Made by a program: the position numbers and the translations under genes. A stretch of 63,001 bases of DNA, counting the filler, from Globobulimina sp. (lineage: Eukaryota), in NCBI GenBank assembly GCA_003354225.1. It is 33 parts of 33 records of this genome, joined end to end, with 100 filler letters (N's around TTAATTAATTAA, not from the genome) between each part and the next. Parts side by side here need not be neighbours in the genome. Positions count along the whole stretch, not along the records: positions 61,191 to 63,001 come from PIVH01011667.1; 32 more parts are not named here. One strand, written 5' to 3'. Below the pieces are notes generated by a model. It saw only the letters and a program-made list of their open reading frames with translations, did not search any database and was not told the DNA's origin. Shown here one piece after another: positions 13,150 to 63,001 of the stretch; the first letter of the stretch is position 1, and each line of letters starts with the position of its first letter.

Positions 13150-13475
13150 GACTGTATTAATTGGACAGCATTTAGCAATGTGATATATTTTTACATATTT
13201 TTTAATTATTTATAAGTACTAGTATTCATTAATTACATTTGTTTTTTTTGGACTCCCTTTTTTTTTCTTCTATTTCGCCATTTTTTTCTACTGTTNNNNN
13301 NNNNNNNNNNNNNNNNNNNNNNNNNNNNNNNNNNNNNNNTTAATTAATTAANNNNNNNNNNNNNNNNNNNNNNNNNNNNNNNNNNNNNNNNNNNNATACT
13401 ATCTTTCAAACTTCCCCCCCTATCACCTGGCGCCATTTCAAAAAGCGACTTTGGCGCAGAAAATACCGCACCAAA

Positions 13476-14240
13476 ATGTGCGCGCCGATGGGTGCTTTCA
13501 ATGCGTCGAATGGAATTACCATACCAAATTCTACAAAAATTTTCACATCAAAGTCAAAATTCTACAGCACTTTGCACACTAAACTTTCACACAAAATTCA
13601 AAATCTATCAGAAGAGTTTGCAAAAATTTCTTCATTTTGCGATGCTATCAGCTCACGATCTACGAAAGATTATGAAAAACTACAACAACATATCGAAATA
13701 CAACAACAACATATCGAAAAACAACATCAACATATCGAAAAACAACAACAACATATCGATAGTCTGATTCAACAACTAAAATCTCCTACAACTTGCTGTG
13801 TATTAAAAGGGAAGAATGATCAAAATGATCAAATTATAGACATTTCGAAACCGAAATCGACTACATCAGACTTTGAAAACGAACGGAAACAAAATGTGGC
13901 AATAGATAAAAAATCGATTGTCTATAAAGGTGAAATTAGAAAAACCCCTCCTGCTAAATCTCCCATGAAAATACGAAAAACCCCACCCGCTAAAACTCCA
14001 ACTAAAGAAACACAGAAACTCCCGCCCACCAAATCGCGAAATATACCATATTTTCCAACCTCACGAAATACTGCTTTTTCTACTGACTTTGAAAGCGAAC
14101 TGAAACAAAATGTTTCAACAGACAAACAATCGATCGTCTATAAAGGTGACAAAATTTCAAAATTTCCTAAAACTAGAGAATCCCCTCCTACTAAATCTCC
14201 CATGAAAACATGGGAAACTAGGCCGACAGCTGACAGCTGA
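13476..14240 (+). CDS. LINE ORF1-like protein with QQHIEK heptad repeats and internal duplications
   Basis: 21-bp tandem repeats ~13682-13760; duplicated TDFE.E.KQNV..DK.SIVYKG and PP.KSPMK segments. Confidence 0.6.
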   Translation: MCAPMGAFNASNGITIPNSTKIFTSKSKFYSTLHTKLSHKIQNLSEEFAKISSFCDAISSRSTKDYEKLQQHIEIQQQHIEKQHQHIEKQQQHIDSLIQQLKSPTTCCVLKGKNDQNDQIIDISKPKSTTSDFENERKQNVAIDKKSIVYKGEIRKTPPAKSPMKIRKTPPAKTPTKETQKLPPTKSRNIPYFPTSRNTAFSTDFESELKQNVSTDKQSIVYKGDKISKFPKTRESPPTKSPMKTWETRPTADS

Positions 14241-14288
14241 CACAAGCTGAAAGTACCATCTCTATCCAATAAAACTAAAACAAACTAT

Positions 14289-15208
14289 ATGTATATGAAT
14301 AACAATATATCCATCAAATACAAACCGTTATCTATCTTGTATAATAATATTAACTCTGTAAATGCCAAAATCGACATTTTACGAAACAATGTATCAACTC
14401 TAAATCCATCTATCATTTGTTGCGTCGAAACTAAATACAAATCAGCTTTACAAATTGACAATATCGAAAATTATGATGGATTCCATAAATTTCAAACTAA
14501 CAACGAATCAGGAGGAATAAGTATTTGGGGTCTAAATTCTATCAAACCAACTAAACTCGACATCGACGGTGCTAATGATACAATTAGCAATCTATATCAA
14601 TGGATACTAATTCAAAATAATGGACCAACTGCTATATGCGCAGTATATTGGAAAAATCAATCCTTTCCAAAATCTAAAGAAATCAACACAGATTTATACA
14701 AACGACTATTAAACCATATTGAATGGTGTACAACTAACAACTACGAAGTCATCATAATTGGGGACTTTAATGGTCACATCGGTAACGACGAATATGGTAT
14801 AGAAGGAAACTTAGATACCATCAACTCTAACGGTTCAATAGTAAGAGAATTTATAAAATCTTGCAATCTACATCTCGACAACAACAACCCCATAACTGAA
14901 GGAAAATGGACATGGGGCAAAAGGAAAAATAATCCAAAAATCTTAGACCTCTTATTCCATTCTAAACTAAGTAAACTGACTAAAATGCATATAGATGAAG
15001 AAAACTGGATTTTGGGAACAGGAAACAGCGACCATTGTTTCATTTATTGTGAAATCAATATATTCCAACACAATATGAACAAAAATCTAAATATAACCGA
15101 AAAAACTAAACCAAAATGGAATATAAACGACGATAGTGATTGGCTAGGCTATAAAGAAAAGCTAAAAGTTCTAACAACTAATCTAAATAACGAACATATT
15201 ACTATACA
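14289..15208 (+). CDS. APE-type endonuclease domain of LINE ORF2 (truncated before RT)
   Basis: YNNINS, CCVET, IIIGDFNGH, TW, ILDLLF, SDH motifs. Confidence 0.88.
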
Positions 15209-19331: not shown

Positions 19332-20947
19332 ATGGCGTCGTCAGGCATGAAACTCGGGCGTGAGGATTACAAAAAGAAAAAAGAATTAGAAGAGTTCCGA
19401 AAATTGGGCGCAGCCCCAGCAGAGGTTGACGATGATGGATACAGTATTAACCCCCATATCCCCCAATACATGGCCGAAGCCCCATGGTATTTAAGCAATG
19501 GCCGTCCAGGTTTGCGACATCAACGGCTCAACAAAGACATCTCAAAACTAGCAAAAGTTGGCGATACAATCTCAAAAGGATATAAATACGATGACAATGG
19601 CAATTTAATACGCAATAAAAAATGGACCAGGGGCTCTTGTGATAATTGTGGTGCCTCCACACATAAAACAAAAGAATGCGTATATCGGCCAAGAAAATTT
19701 AAAGCCAAATATGTTCCCATCAATATTGCTCCGGAAGAACACATACAAAATGCAACTGAATATACCTACGATGGCAAACGCGACCGATGGAACAATTATA
19801 ACATTGCCAATCATCAATTCACCATTGAAAGATACGAAAAACTCGAGAAAGAGCGTAGGGACAAAAAGGCCGCAGAATTAGACAAACAGATATTGGACAA
19901 CACACAGACTTCGAAAAAGAAAATCAAAAAATTAAAACAAAAAGCAAAAAAAGTGAAAAATAGCCGCAAAAAAAAAGAAAATAGCGAATCGTTGTCTGAT
20001 TTAAGCAGTGACAGTGATTCGGATGATTCGGATGACAGTGATTTAGACAGCGATGACGATATGAAGGATAGAGGCGAAGTTATACAGCGATTCGATTCAA
20101 AAAAGCGGCAAACGGTCAGGAATCTGAGAATTACGGAAGATTTACCCAAATATTTGAAGAATTTAAGTATGTGATGGAGTATATTTATGTTATATTCTTG
20201 CGCCAATACTAGTGTTTTATCCTTGCACTGGAAATGTTTTAGTTTGAAAGTGATTTAAATTGTTTGTTTTGATTTGTTATAGGCACTGAATCGGCATATT
20301 ACGATCCAAAAACGCGATCAATGCGAGCCAACCCATACAATCCAACGGATGTCACTGACGACTTATACATCGGAGATAATTTTATTCGGCAAACTGGCGA
20401 TTCCAAAACATTTGACTCATTAAATACATTTGTGTGGCAATCGCGTGCCATAAATGGGCAAAAATCGCATAATATTCATTTACAGTCAAATCCGACTATG
20501 ACAGAATTGGCATTCAAGGAATTTAATAATAAAAAGTCCTCCGTCGAAGACACGTTTAAAGCTTCCTTGACTGCGAAGTACGGCGGAGAGCAACATTTGT
20601 TATCTGATAAAAATAAACAATTAATCTACGGACAAAGTGAGAGCTATCGGGAGTTTGGAGCGGATGGAAGGATCATAAAAGGACAGAAAGAGTTAGTGGC
20701 TCAGTCCAAATACATTGAAGATGTACACCCCGGCAATCATAGCTCAGTATGGGGCTCTTATTTCGATCTAAAAACTCTGAAATGGGGCTATAAATGCTGT
20801 CATTGTCTGGTGTTTAAGGCATTTTGTACCGGCAATGATGGGATAAAGGCACAATTGCGACATAAGAATAAGAATAAAATAGCAAAACATAATAATAGCA
20901 ATACCGCTGATGTTGCCATTGGTGTTATACCGAGGCCCAAGGAATTG
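19332..20947 (+). CDS. SLU7: Pre-mRNA splicing factor Slu7; intron 20167-20282
   Basis: INPHIPQYM..APWY, LRHQR, CDNCGASTHKTKEC zinc knuckle, YDGKRDRWN, TVRNLRI.ED..KYL|..AYYDPKTRSMR, NHSSVWGSY, WGYKCCH. Confidence 0.96.
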
Positions 20948-22610: not shown

Positions 22611-22698
22611 CTCTTGAAATGTAATTAAATAATCTCTGAAGTGTAATTATCAATGGCATGGCACACAAGCAAAGAAACAAACGCAAGAATGTTATATA

Positions 22699-22860
22699 AT
22701 GACAGACGGTGTACATAACACCTTATTTATTTATTTATGGATGAATTTGTAGCATTTGCTACGTCGTATGATGACAGACGGTGTGTACATAGCACCTTAT
22801 TCATATAATTAATTTATGGATGAATTTGTGGCATTTGCTTATTTTGCTACGTCGTATGAT
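22699..22860. repeat. Imperfect tandem repeat (72-bp first unit) upstream of the Harbinger transposase
   Basis: ATGACAGACGGTGT..CACCTTATT..TTTATGGATGAATTTGT.GCATTTGCT..ACGTCGTATGAT at 22699 and 22771. Confidence 0.85.
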
Positions 22861-28696: not shown

Positions 28697-30508
28697 TAAT
28701 TTTCTTTAAAACAAGTAGCTGTATGTTTATGATGATTATATCGAGCAGCATATGTTTCTGCATCATCATTAACCTGTTTTTCAATATCCATATTTCTAAT
28801 TATACTTCTTGGTAGAAATTTTCTATCAATAAGTTTAGGTTTTATAAATCCTATAATTATATTAATTGGAACATTTATTTTTTCAACCATATATTCTGAG
28901 TTAGCATTTAAATGTTTTTCTAATATTTTTCTCATTTCTCTGGTAAAGGTATTGTTCATTATATGAGTTGAAATTTTGCAGGTTATATGTGAATCAATTA
29001 AGTCTTCTAATAATTTTCGTGCTTCTGGATCATGACACCACATTTGAAACATTTTAAAACACCAACTACCAAAAAGTAAACCATGATAATGTAAACTACC
29101 ACCTTGCTGTCCTTCAAAGACTCCTAAATGAGCACGAACTGAACCAAACGCACCACATTCGTTCGTATAGTCTTGTTCAATTAAATCATCATATCGCATT
29201 TGTTTTTCTGTAAAAGTAGTAACAGGCAACTTTACAATGATTTCAAAAAATTTTTCAATCGCGCGATAAAATACATATGTAGCTGCGATAGGATTATTAA
29301 TTATCATTCTCGTTCGTACAGTAATAGTAGGGAGATTTTCAATTATCTTTGTTGTATGATCTGTTAACGTCATATCTAATGCTAAAATATTATTTCGCAT
29401 ATTTGGAGAAATAGTTATAAAATGAGAAGGAATACCAAAAGAATGTGTTAATGAATATATTTTTCCTAAGACATCAGCACGTTCAAATACTGTCCAAGGA
29501 ATTGTTCGTGAAACCATTTTTACCAAAGGTTCAATATCTTTTTTAAGTCTTTTAGCTATTTTAGATTTTGGTTGATTTAATGCTTGTTGAAGATTTTGCA
29601 AAAAATTCTCCTCATTAACTATATCAATGAACTTATCTTCTCTATCTTCTCCTTGTTTTATTCTAAATGCAACAGCTGCGTTATTTTTATGTCGTTTGAA
29701 TTGATCAAATAATAAAAATAATAAATGTAATTCTTTGGCACAACGTTTATCATAAAATAACATCCAATTTTGTTGTAATAATTCCGGAACTGTTCCAACA
29801 CCCATTACATTTTCTGTTAAACCCAAAGGAAAAATCCACGGAAATGCAGCTGATAATATTTTATGATTTAAGCTATATTCAGAGACTAATTCATTTACCA
29901 CCGTTTGTGTGATTGTATTTTTGTTTTGTTGTGCAAATTCTTCTTTTTTTTCTTCCATACAATTGTTTTTATCTGCATTAATTGTTTTATTTATTTGTGT
30001 AAAAACACATTGCAAAGGTTCTCCTGTTTGTGTCTCAGTTGTAATCATACTATTTCGAATTATACAAGTTGCAGAATCAACATTATCATTCAATCCTTCG
30101 TTTTTATCTTCAATTTCGGCACGGATATGTGATAACATTGTACTAATTTTTCCACTCGTTGTATAAAAAGCTTCTTTAAATATATTATCAATTGAATTAT
30201 TTATCATTGTTTCCGCTTCTTTTTCTTCTTTAGTAGTTACAGGAATACGAACATTTTTAAATTGAGGGTTAACTTGCTTTAACCATTGCAACCATGGCAT
30301 AATTTTTTTTATATCAATTCTTAAATCACCTTGTTTATAAATTTGTTTGACCATAGGCCACATTTCAGCAGTACCACATAAATTAAGATGAATAATATCA
30401 GCTAAATCTGTTCGTGGTAAGTTTACTTTTATTTTATCATTCAATTTATCTGCTAAATTTTCATCTAAAATCTTCAAAGATAAACAATGACCTTTCACTG
30501 CAATATTT
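28697..30508 (-). mobile_element. Helitron/Helentron RepHel fragment (Helitron_like_N / HUH Rep domain)
   Basis: AFPWIFPLG, FG.PSHFITISP, NP.AA..F, GAFG.V.A..GVFE.Q..GSLHYH.L, H.HT.TCFK. Confidence 0.88.
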
Positions 30509-31289: not shown

Positions 31290-32589
31290 TACAGAAGTTC
31301 ATCGGTCCGGTCGCAACACTCAGAATTATTTATTGCAGAATGCAAGTTAACTTACGTATTATTTATATTGCCGGGGATGCATTGGTTCCGAATCTGTGCA
31401 TAAGTGACTATCACATAATAGGTTGCGCCAATTATAGCACAGATGACATAATCGCACAGTATGGCGCATATAGGCTTTGCCTTTGCCCCCATACTGGACA
31501 CGTGGGTTACAGTGAGAGTGAGAGTGCTGTTGATATGATGTGGAGACGCAGTGTTTGCAGATGTGTGAGTTGCGCTTGCTGGATTTCTGGATAATTCGGA
31601 GAGTTTACGTGCTGTATTGTTGCGATCCGTTTTCGAATTATCTGGGTTTGGAGAGGTTAATGAAAATGTGCCAGTTAACCGCGATTGCTGTTATGTTTAT
31701 GATATCGTATTGTTGTTATTTTTTTGATAACTTGAATATGAATGGAAATATACAAACAACTTTTGAAAAATAATTAAGCAGTTCTGTAACAAATATAACT
31801 TGGTCAATGGACATAGAAAGGTGATGGCATAACTAAGATTGTAAGACGTACAAATAAGGTGTTTAAAAAGAGGCCATGGAGCAGTGAAAAAATGTGAACA
31901 GCGCAGTTAGTTAATACTTTTTTTCAAAAGGAAATGTGGATGAACATATTTCATGTTATCATCGATCGCAAAACTTAAATTTAACAATATCACACTTCAA
32001 TAATGTCTCAACACTTTCACCTAACATAATAATTTAACAAACTAAAAAAAAAATTAGTGTCACTGTATTTTAGATATTTTGCTAACTCATCAATTCATAT
32101 CTCGTGATGAAAGGCCGGACATCGATTTCTATCAATCCATAATTGAATTCACTTTGATCACCAATCAAATTATCATTATTTAAATACGTTAAAATTACAT
32201 CTTTCGATTCTTTTAATGGCTGTGGATGTCTTAAATAATGAGATATTGTGAATATTTGTGATAAAGTGTAATGATGTTCGATCGTAATTAAGTTTGTCCA
32301 TAAAATAACTCTGATAATAATCATAAATTGGAATGAATGTAAAGCATAATTTGCATAATCAATACTTCCTACTTCCACCGTAAATGCATAATCAACAGCA
32401 TGGCATAGTTTTTTTTCAGGNNNNNNNNNNNNNNNNNNNNNNNNNNNNNNNNNNNNNNNNNNNNTTAATTAATTAANNNNNNNNNNNNNNNNNNNNNNNN
32501 NNNNNNNNNNNNNNNNNNNNTTTTTTAAAATGATTTGCAAGTTTAACCAAGATACTTGACTTTTGAGGCCCTTTTAAGATAAATAAAAC

Positions 32590-41608: not shown

Positions 41609-42211
41609 GATCGAATGGATATAATATAAAATGAATAAAATGTAAGGGAATAGTTTGTAGCTGTTTACGAAGCTATTAGCGAGTCACTCTGCAATGAAAC
41701 AAATAAATAAATAAATACAGCAACGGTGTTTCAGTCAAACTTTGAGATTACGCAAAACATCGCTCAGAGCTATTTTATAATGGAAATCTTTGTTCCTATT
41801 CCTTTTCATCAAATGAATATATTCTGCGGAATACCAATGGCAAATCATCTTCAATATATCATCTGATGGATACAATACATTTTTCCATTCTATATCGCGG
41901 AAACACATTTTAACAAAACCAAACACAACCTGTTGTTCCTTCGTTTTATTGTTCATAATCACCGCATAACATGGCCCTTTNNNNNNNNNNNNNNNNNNNN
42001 NNNNNNNNNNNNNNNNNNNNNNNNTTAATTAATTAANNNNNNNNNNNNNNNNNNNNNNNNNNNNNNNNNNNNNNNNNNNNTCATAAAAGAATACATAGCG
42101 GAGAGAGGCCATTCAAATGCAAACATTGTGACAAAGCATACACACGACATAGTCATAGAAACAACCATCAAAAAAAATGCAAATTCAAAGCAAAAACTTT
42201 ACCTCAATCTA

Positions 42212-43444
42212 ATGGCTGTTAAAACATGGACATCTTATTTGACTTGTTTGACACAAATAGCTTTTGGATCGACTCGTAATAAAATTATAACTTCGATTGT
42301 TTCAACTACCATATTGCTGACATGTGTGGTAAAACTAATAAAATGTGCAGGCACTCGAGAACATCGAGCAAAAAAGAAATACGAATCACAAAAAAGAACA
42401 CCATTCGTTAATAAACTACCCAAAGGACCTAATTTAAGAGCACCTGAGCCAGGGACCACAATGATAAATGATTTCCGTGCAAATAAAATTAATAAAAACC
42501 AAAAATTCGTTGACATTAAAACCGATCAAATCCGTATAATAACATGGAACATAGAACGAGGATACCAAACAAATGAAGTTATCAATGAATTGAAAAAAGT
42601 AAATGCGGATATTATATTATTGCAAGAAGTGGATATAGGCACTCAACGTACCAATTTTTTGGATGTTGGTAATGAGATCGCCAATGCTTTATCATATCAA
42701 ATTATTTACGGCGCAGATTGTTGGCACGTAAATGTTTGTCATGAAAACGATTCAAATCGGAAAAACCAAAATATTTTATATAATGCTCAACCGTTAACCG
42801 CATAATGCCATGATAATGGATGTGAAGGCAATGCGATATTAACGAGATTCGATATCATTGAGCAATATCCATTGATACTTCCCTGTGTTCGGAATAGTTA
42901 TCGTCCCTCACATTATATGATGAAGAGGCATACGGCAGTTGTGGCTGTAATGGATGTACCAAATATTGGTGAAATTGTGTGCTATTCGTTACATTTTGAT
43001 GCTTTTTCAGGGCGAGTTGCAAGGTCATCCATTCAGTATAACACAATATACCAAGATATTGTTCTGAAGCATGCAGAAACACAAAGGGCAGTGGTAGTTG
43101 GTGGTGATTTTAATACGCATAACCATGGAATTGTAAGGTTTATCAATGAAATGAGTGGTGATGATGCGTTGAGATATAAATTTTGGGGAATGAGTGAGGC
43201 TGAATGGTGGGATCAGTATGTGATTGGTATTGAGGATGATGGAAATATAGAGTTAACAGATCCATTTGATAAAAATAAAGATATTACAGCTTGTAAAATA
43301 TGGAATGGTATCTCTGTATGGAGCGGGAAAATTGATTGGTTGTTGTATGATATTGAGAAATTGACGGTTGTTAATAAATATGTGTCCAATACGGATGCAA
43401 GCGACCATCAATATTTATTTTGTGATATTAAAGCAAAAAGGTAA
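42212..43444 (+). CDS. Endonuclease/exonuclease/phosphatase (EEP) family protein with in-frame TAA at 42803-42805
   Basis: TWNIERG, LLQEVD, GNAILTR, SLHF, GGDFNT, KIDW, SDH all in one frame. Confidence 0.85.
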
Positions 43445-47813: not shown

Positions 47814-49624
47814 CAAACTGATTCCGACTGGCGACGACCAAAAATGCAAACTATTATTCACACACTTTCCCATAGCATATTGGTTACCAAATTATAAAAT
47901 TAAATCTTATCTATCTGATGATATTATTGCTGGTCTAACTGCCGGAATTATGCTGATCCCGCAAGGAATGGGTTATTCCTTAATTGCTTCCTTAGATCCA
48001 ATCTATGGTTTATATGCCTCAATGTTTGGGCCATTATTATATGCCTTATTTGGGACATCTGGGCAATTATCAGTGGCCCCCGTTGCTGTGGTGTCGCTTA
48101 TGACGTATGTTTTATATTCCATTTTGAGCCTCAATCACTTAATAAATATTAATATAAAAACAAAGAGGCGAAGCGCTGGAGTCCATTATCCATGCATATG
48201 ACTTGGAGGATGGAGCCAAAATTGCCATCGCGTCTTGCATAGCATTCCAAGTCGGCCTCATCCAATTATGTATAGGTTTGCTGAATGGCGGAGTCATTGC
48301 AAACTTATTATCGCATTCAGTCACGTTGGGGTTTACCTGCGCTGCGGCCATATTAATTGGTTTGAGTCAAATCAAACATATCTTTCAGATCCAAGTCGAT
48401 CGAGGAGAAATTATTCAAGTTTTAAAGAGCTTATTTTCAAATATTGGCGATACCCACTGGCAAAGTGTCGTATTGTCTGTCTGCTGCATCATCTTTTTAT
48501 CGTTGCTCAAAGTTTGGAAACGCTCTAAAAAAGCACTATGGGGACAGAAATACGCTCAGTTTGTGCCGGGACCGTTGATCGTTGTGGTTATGTCAACATT
48601 CATTGTGTGGCTGTCTGATAATTCTGCAGGTTTTCATATTATTAACGAGATTCAAAATGGTTTGCCCAAAGTTAGTAACTTTTTTGTGGAATTGGAGAAT
48701 ATTGAGATATTTTGGAATCTGTGGACAACCTCTTTGATGATCTCATTAATCGCATTTATCGAAAGTTATGCCGTGGCGCACAAATTTGCTGAACAGCGTG
48801 GTTATCATATTAATGCTTCACAGGAATTGATAGCAAATGGCATTCCCAATTTGGTCGCGTCCTTCTTCCAAATCTATCCAATAACGGGCGGGTTGTCGCG
48901 GACTGCGGTCGTGGATGCAGCCGGAGGCAAAACTCCACTCAATTCGCTAATTTCTGGCTTATTTATGCTCATCGCATTGGGTTTGTTATTGTCGTTATTC
49001 AAATATTTGCCGTTTTGCGTGCTGGCCTCAATTATTATGGTGTCTGTTTCTGGCTTGTTTGACTATTCTGCGATGATTCATTTGTGGCATATTAAACATA
49101 AAGATTTTTATGTCTCTTTTATTACGTTTATAATCACTTTGTTTGTAGGCGTCGAAATCGGTGTCGCTGTGGGTGTGGTTGTGAGTATTCTGGTATTTAT
49201 TGAAAGAGCCACCATTCCGCACTACGCAGTGTTGGGTAAAGTGAGCAGCACTGTTTATAGAAATATTAAAAATTATGAAAATGCACAGATTCGCGATGAT
49301 ATTCTAATCATTCGATGGGATGCGAGCTTATTCTTTGCCAATATCGCAACATTCAGAGCCAAGGTAACGAAGCAAATTAAAAGGAAGAAGGAGCTGAGAA
49401 TTGATGGTTTTTGGTGCTTGGTGTTATGTTTTAGCGGCATTAATGATATCGATGCGACAGCGGCACACAGTTTGTATTCGTTTGTCAATGAATTGCAACA
49501 GAAATATGAGCAACTTACCATTGTTGTGAGCAATACGAAAAAACCCGTTATGACTGTTTTGAGGAAAGTAAAATTTATTGAATTGATTGGAGAGAGCAAG
49601 GTTTTCTTTCAAATTAGTGAAGCG
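47814..49624 (+). CDS. SLC26/SulP anion transporter with STAS domain; intron from ~48105
   Basis: DIIAGLT.G.MLIPQGMGY..A.L.P.YGLY, GTS.QLSVAP, SQELIA.G..N, GGLSRTAV, FFAN, IDATA. Confidence 0.95.
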
Positions 49625-60545: not shown

Positions 60546-60893
60546 TCACAACTTTGAGTGTTGATTAATTTGAAAATACAAATGGTAATGCTTTTGACAT
60601 CGGGGATTAAACTTAGATTTACAACACAAACAAATGTTATTACTACTTAAATATTCAGTTATTAACAATTCATTGTCACATTTTCCACATAAAATTGCCT
60701 TCTCTGTTTGAAATTTATCAGTTCCCCATTGTTTTGGTTGATGTATCTCACATTCTAAATGGCATGAATAGCACGGATAGTATTTATTGCAGCAAGCAAA
60801 TTTAATGGCTATTATATCCAACTCACCATACCAATGAATACAACGCGTTTCATTATCAATACACTTGCCATAAATTATATTTTTGATAGACAT
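60546..60893 (-). CDS. CHY zinc-finger protein (Hot13-like)
   Basis: TRC.H....DIIAIKF.CC.KYY.C..CH, AILCG.C, C..C...FNP.C..H.HLYF. Confidence 0.92.
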   Translation of the reverse strand: MSIKNIIYGKCIDNETRCIHWYGELDIIAIKFACCNKYYPCYSCHLECEIHQPKQWGTDKFQTEKAILCGKCDNELLITEYLSSNNICLCCKSKFNPRCQKHYHLYFQINQHSKL

Positions 60894-61190
60894 GCTGATG
60901 CTGTCTTGACCTAGTTACTAATAGTTAGGCCTAACGGTTTTGGTTTAGGAATGGCGGTATTTTTCGGAATAACTAATATTCAATGTTTGCAATTTAATTA
61001 AAAGAAAATACGATAAATATATAAAATTAGTATATGCTTAGTGGTATTCTTTATGGATAGTAAATGATTGCATGCCATTTATTGTATGGANNNNNNNNNN
61101 NNNNNNNNNNNNNNNNNNNNNNNNNNNNNNNNNNTTAATTAATTAANNNNNNNNNNNNNNNNNNNNNNNNNNNNNNNNNNNNNNNNNNNN

Positions 61191-62828
61191 GGCGGGATCC
61201 GTTATATGCAGAAGGTCCCCAACGACCGGCAAAGATTCAGCAACGTCATTGGCAAATGTGACAGTCAAATGGATAAATGGTTGGCGGAGGAGGTGGCGAG
61301 ATATGGCAGGCGGCCATATACCATCCAGTTAGATGAAGGGAGCGATGAAATGAAATACGGGATGTATTGCCCGTTGCTATCGTTTAACGGCGAGATGAAA
61401 CCGATTGGATTAGATTGCAAATTCGCGATCACATCATCAAACTCTGCATGCGCATCGACGGTGATTAATCGGTGTCGTGAGACTTTTAAATTAGGTATTT
61501 TCTTCGGCTCCGCGTGTTTATTTATGTACAGTTTGAAACTGATTTTTTTTTCAGTTTGAGACCGCATTTTAGGATATAAATATAGTTTGAAACTGAAATA
61601 ATAATTCAGTCTCAAACTGACACAATAAATCTGTTTGAAACTATGCCAATAATTCAGATTCAAACTGATAAAATAATTCAGTTTGAATCTGAATATTCGC
61701 CTTTTACAAAAGGACGGGGGGCGAAGCCCCCGTCCCTTTTGTAAAAGGCCTTTATTGCGATGCAAACTGAATTATTTTATCAGTTTGAAACTGAATTATT
61801 TGCATAGTTTCAAACTGATTTATTGTATCAGTTTGAGACTGAATTATTATTTCAGTTTCAAACTATATTTATATCCTAAAATGCGGTTTCAAACTGAAAA
61901 AAAAATCAGTTTCAAACTGTACATAAATAAACATAATATTTATAAACAGGACGAGAAGATTTCCGGTATTTTTTAAGTGATGGCGTATCTTATAATAACA
62001 AGACGTATGATGACATTATGAAATTTTACCCGGGTTTGCATCATTTATTAAGCCCGTTACATCTATTAACGAATGGAATTAATGATGGAATCGATAAGAC
62101 CCCTAAGCGGGCAATTGGTTTATTATTGGAAGTGTTGAAAGAGGGCTCGTTATTATTTAGCAAATCAATGAAGCGACGAAGAGCGGTAAAAGAATATTTG
62201 GAGGGATTGAATACATTGCACACTGATCCCATCGTTGTGCAATTATTCCAAGCATTGGCGTATGAAGAATTTTGCAATATTTATGATTTGACGCAGTCGC
62301 GAGAAGTGGTGGAGAGATTGGTATTTGGCGGTGATAGTAACGTCGATGAAAAGGATGATGATGACGATGAGGTGGCGAGTTTATATTTAGTTCGAGCGAC
62401 GTGTTTAACGACGCATCCTCCGCGTCGCATAAAAAACAAATGGAAGTCTATTATTTTTTGTGCTTATTACTGGCACAAAAATCTAAGGAATTTTAGGGCG
62501 TGGTGTCAAGCATATTTCGATGATGAGCAATTATTCAGTAAATTGGACGAGATGCAGCTATTGGAATTAGAGCTACAATTTGCATTCCTGTATCACCAAT
62601 TGGTGCCGGTGATGCATGTTATATTATTGGTGGAGAAGCGTGGCGTTGTGGGGCATTTATTATATGCGAAATTATTGGCGATTCAAAACTCGTTTAAAAA
62701 GAGACAATACGAAGAGATGGCAATGGCAGTACAAGGCGCGGTGGATGAATGGCTCCGAGAGATGGACGACTTTGCAGTTAGCTGGACATTGCAGCGTCAG
62801 AGAATATATATAATCCAGCGCTGTATAG
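61191..62828 (+). mobile_element. hAT-superfamily (CGGBP/DUF659-like) DDE transposase gene; intron 61495-61949, probable second intron from 62829
   Basis: YTIQLDEGSD (D1); spliced FKLG|REDFRYFLSDGVSY (D2) ..FYP...HLLSPLH; PPRRIKNKW.S...AYY (RW-motif region); splice keeps frame with ORF 62018. Confidence 0.82.
61515..61933. repeat. 419-bp foldback palindrome made of ~24-bp-period TCAGTTT(C/G)AAACTGA units with a central GC-rich GCGAAGC hairpin
   Basis: Arms 61515-61685 and 61763-61933 differ at 5 positions; axis at 61724, the centre of GCGAAGC 61721-61727. Confidence 0.97.
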
Positions 62829-62895
62829 GTATTGTTTTATGTTTTTGTTATGCGAAAATGCGGGATTATTTATGGTGGATTGCACCATAATTATT

Positions 62896-63000
62896 TCAGT
62901 TTGAAACTGATACAATTACTTAGTTTCAAACTGTAATAATTATTTGGTTTCAAACTATGACAATTAAAATAGTTTCAAACTGAATAATAATTCAGTTTCC
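62896..63000. repeat. Second array of the same 15-bp palindromic unit (truncated by contig end)
   Basis: Units at 62896, 62920, 62944, 62969, 62992. Confidence 0.93.
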
Positions 63001-63001
63001 G

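Follow-up and report, generated by a model that had tools for sequence, protein, structure and literature searches.

What interrupts a transposase-like gene of Globobulimina sp. at position 62829, where the reading frame gives way to an array of 24-bp palindromic units that also fills an intron further upstream in the same gene? The original prediction took the interruption for a probable second intron. The window, the whole 63,001-nucleotide stretch of DNA that was analysed, consists of 33 contigs of 1811-1814 bp each, ordered by length and joined by 32 copies of the linker TTAATTAATTAA with runs of N on both sides (for example, at 61092-61190), so that contigs side by side in the window are not genome neighbours. 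The linker itself places a stop in all six frames. The contig with the transposase-like gene occupies 61191-63001 and its 3' end coincides with the end of the window; the second array is therefore cut by the assembly and not by the window, and this contig end is explained whichever reading holds, by an assembly that broke in a repeat. We tentatively favour, at a little short of an even chance, the reading that the second insert is a foldback- or transposon-derived intron of the introner type, removed from the transcript. The contig carries the following features:

61194-61494, plus strand: exon 1 (partial) of the transposase-like gene, an open reading frame that is open to the contig start and matches the relative P0002 by tblastn.
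61495-61949, plus strand: candidate intron 1, 455 nt, GTATTT...AAACAG, phase 1, placed by the frame join and by colinearity with P0002.
61515-61933, no strand assigned: foldback of 419 nt, with 208-nt arms that are 93% complementary and lie 3 nt apart.
61700-61748, no strand assigned: G+C-rich central hairpin of 49 nt at the tip of the foldback, paired in the RNA fold.
61950-62828, plus strand: exon 2 of the transposase-like gene, 293 codons including the split Gly, from the open reading frame and 12 relatives.
62829-62886, plus strand: leader of the second insert, 58 nt, with a donor-like GTATTG start, kept in the copy P0006.
62887-63001, no strand assigned: second array, palindromic units to the contig end, at 62896, 62920, 62944, 62969 and (cut) 62992.
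62888-62890, plus strand: TAA stop closing the read-through frame.

The gene belongs to a family whose long members extend beyond the window copy. A HMMER scan of 1.84 billion representatives recovered 12 relatives, the best being P0001 (8e-86; 76-81% identity to exon 2) and P0002 (2e-44). The long relatives, P0002 (667 aa), P0004 (590 aa), P0005 (846 aa) and P0008 (804 aa), run unbroken across the intron-1 junction and extend ~250-290 aa past the point aligned with 62828, which bears out the claim that the transposase frame is unfinished at 62829. The window copy represents the middle of the protein family alone: by tblastn, the family's C-terminal ~250-290 aa are encoded nowhere in the window's contigs, and in the alignment the read-through tail after 62828 has no counterpart in the long relatives. 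A word index returned no longer relatives, a near-length search returned P0001 and P0006 only, and none of 280 pattern matches of the window protein in prokaryote genome contigs was confirmed. The presence of P0001 and P0006 on other tiny contigs supports a gene that is multi-copy and decaying.

On the proposed kinship with hAT transposases, the profile searches and the language model point in different directions. Pfam searches at E up to 1 gave no match to the hAT models (Dimer_Tnp_hAT, DUF659, DUF4371, zf-BED) for two window pieces or for P0001, P0002, P0004, P0005, P0006 and P0008, and none at E up to 10 for six further relatives; the family profile likewise had no match in the PDB at E up to 10. 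An AlphaFold2 model of P0005 was too poor for use (mean pLDDT 44.7), and Foldseek of this model against the PDB returned no match at E up to 0.001, all E-values being >1. A lead in favour of hAT comes from the language-model neighbours: eight of the ten best named clusters for P0005 belong to a hAT-type family or clan, with scores of 0.88-0.91 (Dimer_Tnp_hAT, DUF4371, FAM200-ZBED5 RNase-like, DUF659 and zf-BED), and DUF659 and ZBED1-type clusters also occur among the lower-scoring neighbours of the window piece. Possible counterparts of hAT blocks are a Cys2-His2-type finger in the N-terminal region of P0005 and P0008 and, towards the C-terminus, an SER/NER motif. The gene is transposase-like and probably hAT-related.

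Judged from its sequence, intron 1 is a well-supported candidate, bounded by GT..AG, 455 nt long and leaving a colinear protein after removal. By tblastn, residues 28-127 of P0002 lie on 61197-61493 and residues 132-379 on 61961-62701, and the four P0002 residues between these blocks equal the four codons made by joining 61494 to 61950; removing 61495-61949 thus restores colinearity with P0002 with no net indel. The flanking exons are stop-free. The inverted repeat lies wholly inside the intron, starting 20 nt and 16 nt from the splice sites, and each of its A/T-rich arms holds seven palindromic units, mostly at 24-nt spacing, on either side of the G+C-rich tip at 61700-61748. The predicted RNA fold of the intron is a single hairpin (-292.5 kcal/mol, z -35.7), in which 19 nt next to the donor and 15 nt next to the acceptor stay unpaired. 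A protein search with the longest open reading frame across the foldback gave two candidates, neither significant.

No convincing target-site duplication and no flanking direct repeat were found around 61515/61933. The repeat at the splice borders is AGG alone, and the longest direct repeat in the scan was a low-complexity 7-mer, TATTTAT, at positions that do not fit the foldback ends. With two sites in all and a border repeat of three bases, the suggestion that such insertions target AG|GT sites is conjectural.

The second junction closely mirrors the first. The donor context at 62825-62834 is ATAG|GTATTG, its intron-1 counterpart at 61491-61500 is TTAG|GTATTT, and both junctions (62828|62829 and 61494|61495) fall after base 1 of a Gly codon, in phase 1, as the sequence and the ORF frames confirm for the near-identical contexts and shared phase originally reported. 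The leader (62829-62886) contains a short hairpin; it bears little relation to the left side of intron 1 (33 of 58 bases match), with the exception of a 15-mer at 62860-62874 that is 87% like 61512-61526. Read through from 62829, the frame (ORF 61946..62890) gains 19 residues and then meets the TAA at 62888-62890, in agreement with the early stop that had been noticed. At position +5, both donors (GTATTT and GTATTG) depart from the GTATGT that begins each of the two introns validated on other contigs of the window:

20167-20282: ordinary intron of 116 nt in Slu7, with profile positions 2-98 on one side and 99-253 on the other.
48105-48165: ordinary intron of 61 nt in a sulfate permease, with contiguous Pfam profile coordinates.

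The array that follows the leader holds five TCAGTTT(C/G)AAACTGA-like units, exactly as claimed, at spacings of 24, 24, 25 and 23 nt measured from the AG of each unit; the fifth, at 62992, is cut after TCAGTTTC. TRF reports a period of 24 with 4.6 copies at 62889-62999 (score 104). With one mismatch or fewer, the core AGTTTSAAACT occurs 20 times in the window against 2.63 expected, a count reached in none of 100 shuffles, and 16 of these 20 occurrences lie in the contig at 61191-63001 (12 in intron 1 and four in the second array), the four outside it all having a mismatch. By core motif scan and by blastn of both inserts, the array is absent from the other 32 contigs of the window, where blastn gave just short A/T-rich chance matches (for example, 32038-32067 and 20223-20254). 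A three-unit array pattern found no locus in prokaryote genome contigs.

Each unit reads TCAG...CTGA, and with its spacer resembles a branch-site-like CTGAY followed 9-12 nt later by YCAG (62896-62999 and 61528-61920), on either strand. The pattern may be coincidental, or it may provide 3' splice signals irrespective of orientation.

The second array and that of intron 1 are genuinely related. In a three-way alignment, 62887-62998 runs in register with units 3-7 of the intron-1 foldback arm, with 85 of 111 positions matching the left arm and 87 the reverse-complemented right arm (77-78% identity); the spacers, described at first as different from the intron-1 copy, are thus corrected to homologous in register. 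Over the same columns, the two intron-1 arms match each other at 112 of 116 bases (97%). Local alignment scores are 93-97 in the direct, outer-to-inner orientation and 83 and 65 in the opposite one; 200 shuffled sequences average 19.7 and do not exceed 29.

The second insert is shared by another copy of the gene. P0006 is a 210-aa read-through open reading frame on a separate NCBI contig of 1044 bp, from a paralogous or orthologous copy, that matches exon 2 up to the same Gly (49/67 residues identical) and carries the same junction, the leader and all five units. Its first 40 residues match another frame of the window sequence before it switches to the main frame, and this frame switch upstream of the junction marks the copy as damaged. 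Within the insert, from LCENAG to NNNSVS, 44 of 51 pseudo-codons are identical to the window (a hand count from the alignment), the window's three stops being among the differences; with 7/51 positions differing in the insert and 18/67 in the flanking exon, a gap too small for significance, the insert is no less conserved than the exon. Because P0006, on another contig, has all of these features, the insert does not stem from misassembly; it was present in the common ancestor of the copies, inherited with the gene, in line with the proposal that the array belongs to this gene's lineage. The residues at the junction are Gly-Tyr in P0006 and Gly-Ile in the window, a difference that requires a change in one or more of the first five intron bases and may weaken the donor.

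P0006 also reaches beyond the point where the window ends. Its next residue past the array fits the window's last bases, and ~6 residues past the last unit still resemble the inner end of the intron-1 arm (a frame -2 match). These are followed by ~42 A/T-rich residues unlike the family C-terminus, and the place equivalent to 61700-61748 holds a different, A/T-rich sequence. No sign of a mirrored arm appears in the 48 residues (~145 nt) after the array. The second insert may therefore not be a simple foldback. Of the original proposal, the interruption and the relation to the intron-1 array stand, and a second foldback after the array would be conjectural, P0006 having no mirrored arm within this distance.

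The tentative reading of the second insert as an intron draws on several lines of evidence: a TAG|GTATT context and a phase are common to the two junctions; intron 1, with its GT..AG borders, can be taken out to leave intact exons colinear with P0002, and its fold keeps no more than 19 + 15 nt unpaired; ~250-290 more residues are needed to complete the protein; the arrays are homologous in register and fit best in the outer-to-inner orientation; the insert is co-inherited with the gene in P0006; and transposon-derived introns with inverted repeats are described as an established class (PMC11282704, PMC8469720). Against it stand a contig that ends at 63001 with the donor side alone of the second insert on it, the donors, which differ at +5 from GTATGT and of which the P0006 version is altered, the lack of a convincing target-site duplication, the missing mirrored arm in P0006, and the occurrence of the array in 0 of the 32 other contigs, which gives no sign, within the window, of mobility into unrelated genes.

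If the second insert is an intron, 62829-63001 would represent the 5' part of a second copy of the kind of non-coding insert seen in intron 1, with a start that resembles a splice donor, then a leader and a single arm of 24-bp palindromic units. The insert interrupts a multi-copy, probably hAT-like transposase gene, is passed on with that gene and would be removed as a spliceosomal intron. In intron 1, the hairpin may assist splicing by bringing the splice sites to within ~35 nt of unpaired RNA: with its middle 419 nt zipped, the 455-nt intron would present itself to the spliceosome at the size of a normal short intron, ~35 nt being close to the short introns validated in this genome (61 and 116 nt). 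Base-pairing within introns that shortens effective distances is described as helping splicing in yeast (PMC2536676). The 15-bp palindromes at their fixed 24-bp period could, in addition, be putative sites for a dimeric DNA-binding protein.

An unlikely but still appreciable alternative is that a foldback or MITE-type element nested itself in the gene, was never spliced and killed a sub-lineage of the transposon; the window copy and P0006 would both be dead copies that multiplied passively or by duplication, and a GT would stand at 62829 by chance. The decay of P0006, with its frame switch upstream of the junction, fits such a history, as do the in-frame stops in LINE-like open reading frames that mark other transposon copies of the window as decayed, the donors without the +5 G of the validated introns, and the changed base within the first five intron positions of P0006. 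It does not, however, account for AG|GT junctions in the same phase at both inserts, nor for the GT..AG borders of intron 1, whose removal restores colinearity with the relatives exactly between intact exons, and a plain transposon insertion would leave a target-site duplication, of which no convincing instance is seen.

It is improbable that the array is the element's own end, that is, a set of subterminal transposase-binding repeats that an internal deletion placed beside codon 293 of exon 2, with the window copy and P0006 as deletion derivatives and the intron-1 foldback as a mini-element made of two such ends. The array fits the left arm better in its outer-to-inner orientation (93-97 vs 83), P0006 stays homologous to the inner intron-1 arm for ~6 codons beyond the last unit, its array is followed by at least 145 nt with no recognisable terminus, and an AG|GTATT breakpoint in phase 1 is not predicted by a deletion. 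Nonetheless, a contig that breaks at the array, as assemblies do at repeats, agrees with an element end, an amplified deletion derivative would account for one breakpoint shared by two copies, and short repeats arrayed close to the termini are common in hAT, CACTA, Mutator and P/foldback-type elements. The ends of the present element, where a hAT transposon would have short terminal inverted repeats and an 8-bp target-site duplication, lie outside the 1811-bp contig, so that the internal mirroring of subterminal binding sites suggested originally stays conjectural. The likeness to the subterminal repeats of Ac/Ds (PMC3260210) lies in the clustering of short motifs within a few hundred bases in association with a hAT-like transposase. 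They differ in that the Ac motifs are hexamers close to the termini, short and with no palindromic symmetry, whereas the present unit, a 15-bp palindrome, recurs at a strict ~24-bp period inside a coding region.

Improbable, too, is an origin in which nothing is mobile, the two being ordinary old introns in which a palindromic minisatellite expands locally and became palindromised in intron 1. Within the 33 contigs the arrays are confined to a single gene, and no target-site duplication is present; the 77-78% likeness of the arrays, set against 97% for the intron-1 arms over the same stretch, would be expected if the arrays go back to an old common origin and the inverted duplication is recent. 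Yet register-level homology across two introns needs a transfer between them anyway, and intron 1 minus its foldback would be ~36 nt, shorter than either validated intron (61 and 116 nt). An assembly artefact, whether a chimeric contig end or a collapsed repeat, is suggested by very short contigs and by a contig that stops inside a repeat, but is extremely unlikely, given an independent contig (P0006) with the same junction, leader and array that agrees with the window's last bases, and intron-1 arms that differ at 7% of positions, unlike an amplification chimera.

The reading of the second insert as an intron admits a bolder extension. There is a slim chance that the introner is self-hosted: its units would bind the hAT-like transposase, and a mini-element inserting at AG|G would have entered its parent's transposase gene twice and would survive there by hairpin-aided splicing. 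On this view, small RNAs made from the intron-1 hairpin might also silence every copy, as a brake of the Mu killer type. Mu killer is reportedly a natural inverted duplication of part of MuDR that silences MuDR through hairpin RNA. It resembles the present case in having a long, near-perfect hairpin transcribed from transposon sequence, and differs in being a separate locus with coding sequence in the hairpin, whereas the hairpin here would consist of intronic repeat DNA.

Among known systems, introners are described as DNA transposons, for the most part non-autonomous, that give rise to introns, and are reported from 5.2% of the genomes surveyed; many families, though not all, have terminal inverted repeats and short target-site duplications, one splice site coming from the element and the other from the duplication (PMC11282704, PMC12130899). 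Measured against these descriptions, and that of the Micromonas IE, the likeness lies in a non-coding, non-autonomous inverted-repeat insert that is placed in a coding gene just as a GT..AG intron would be, in related copies at more than one position, and in the AGG at the borders, which could supply the acceptor AG. In contrast to introners as described there, the two copies here sit in one gene that is itself a transposase, splicing is predicted from the sequence, the inverted repeat lies 20 nt and 16 nt inside the splice sites, and no clear target-site duplication is visible. Copies in unrelated genes, by which introners are recognised, were found in none of the other 32 contigs of the window.

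A second parallel is found in Hypoxylaceae fungi, in which internally symmetrical introns are described as proliferating without flanking duplications (PMC8469720). These sister (stw)introns share with intron 1 the long inverted repeats, possible double-stranded intron RNA and the absence of flanking duplications; as that source describes them, they have terminal inverted repeats of 45-55 nt and a nested-intron donor, whereas intron 1 has 208-nt arms of a 24-bp palindromic unit in an AT-rich genome, with no sequence relation between the two. Foldback-type transposons such as Drosophila FB and Galileo are similar in their long inverted arms of tandem sub-repeats (PMC3688188, PMC3573991), and the long repeats of Galileo are described as holding multiple binding sites for the DNA-binding domain of the transposase (PMC3688188). 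Arms with tandem sub-repeats and a short loop are present at 61515-61933, and one such arm is seen at 62829-63001; the flanking target-site duplication of this class is absent at 61515 and 61933. The arms of foldback-type transposons are described as flanking the transposase gene, whereas here the foldback lies inside the gene, in an intron position.

A full-text literature search with the 13-nt core motif found no paper, and in the returned parts of the literature on foldbacks, introns, transposases and subterminal repeats this arrangement did not appear, which does not imply that it is unpublished. The case may best be viewed as a modestly interesting variant that would work like introners and the Hypoxylaceae introns. 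Its unusual points are a host gene that is itself a transposase, two related inserts, and arms built of strictly spaced 24-bp palindromes. Were both inserts spliced, they would provide a compact natural case of a foldback repeat that creates introns in a transposase gene and is inherited with the transposon, and would bear on how new introns arise from mobile DNA, on how a spliceosome used to short introns can accept a long one that folds into a long hairpin, and on transposons that carry internal copies of their own repeat arrays. Unspliced, they would amount to an ordinary nested repeat in a dead transposon copy.

The remaining contigs of the window (G+C of 25-40% per contig across the window) show the setting in which this gene is found. 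They encode eukaryotic genes, namely a RabGAP-TBC protein with a PX domain, a PH-domain protein, the sulfate permease, Slu7, a signal peptide peptidase and a multicopper oxidase, and carry transposon remains with Helitron_like_N and LINE-type endonuclease open reading frames with in-frame stops. Rfam families were absent across the whole window. Two general explanations were considered and rejected. Ciliate nanochromosomes, brought to mind by the 1.8-kb contigs, are at odds with telomere-like repeats at 0 contig ends. A variant genetic code, brought to mind by the in-frame stops, was set aside, as these stops sit in LINE-like endonuclease pseudogenes; the two Exo_endo_phos open reading frames are read as decayed retrotransposon copies. 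The individual features are as follows:

13398-15206, plus strand: LINE-type endonuclease open reading frame (Exo_endo_phos), with one in-frame TGA at 14238.
42083-43441, plus strand: LINE-type endonuclease open reading frame (Exo_endo_phos), with one in-frame TAA at 42803.
28699-30507, minus strand: Helitron fragment, a 603-aa open reading frame spanning its entire contig (Helitron_like_N 5e-17, weak DUF6570).
60549-60914, minus strand: CHY zinc-finger open reading frame (3e-9), on the contig preceding 61191-63001.
22695-22839: 79-bp tandem duplication, 1.9 copies, 86% matches, score 206.
13674-13759: 21-bp repeat within an open reading frame, 4.1 copies, encoding a repeated QQQHIEK-like heptad.
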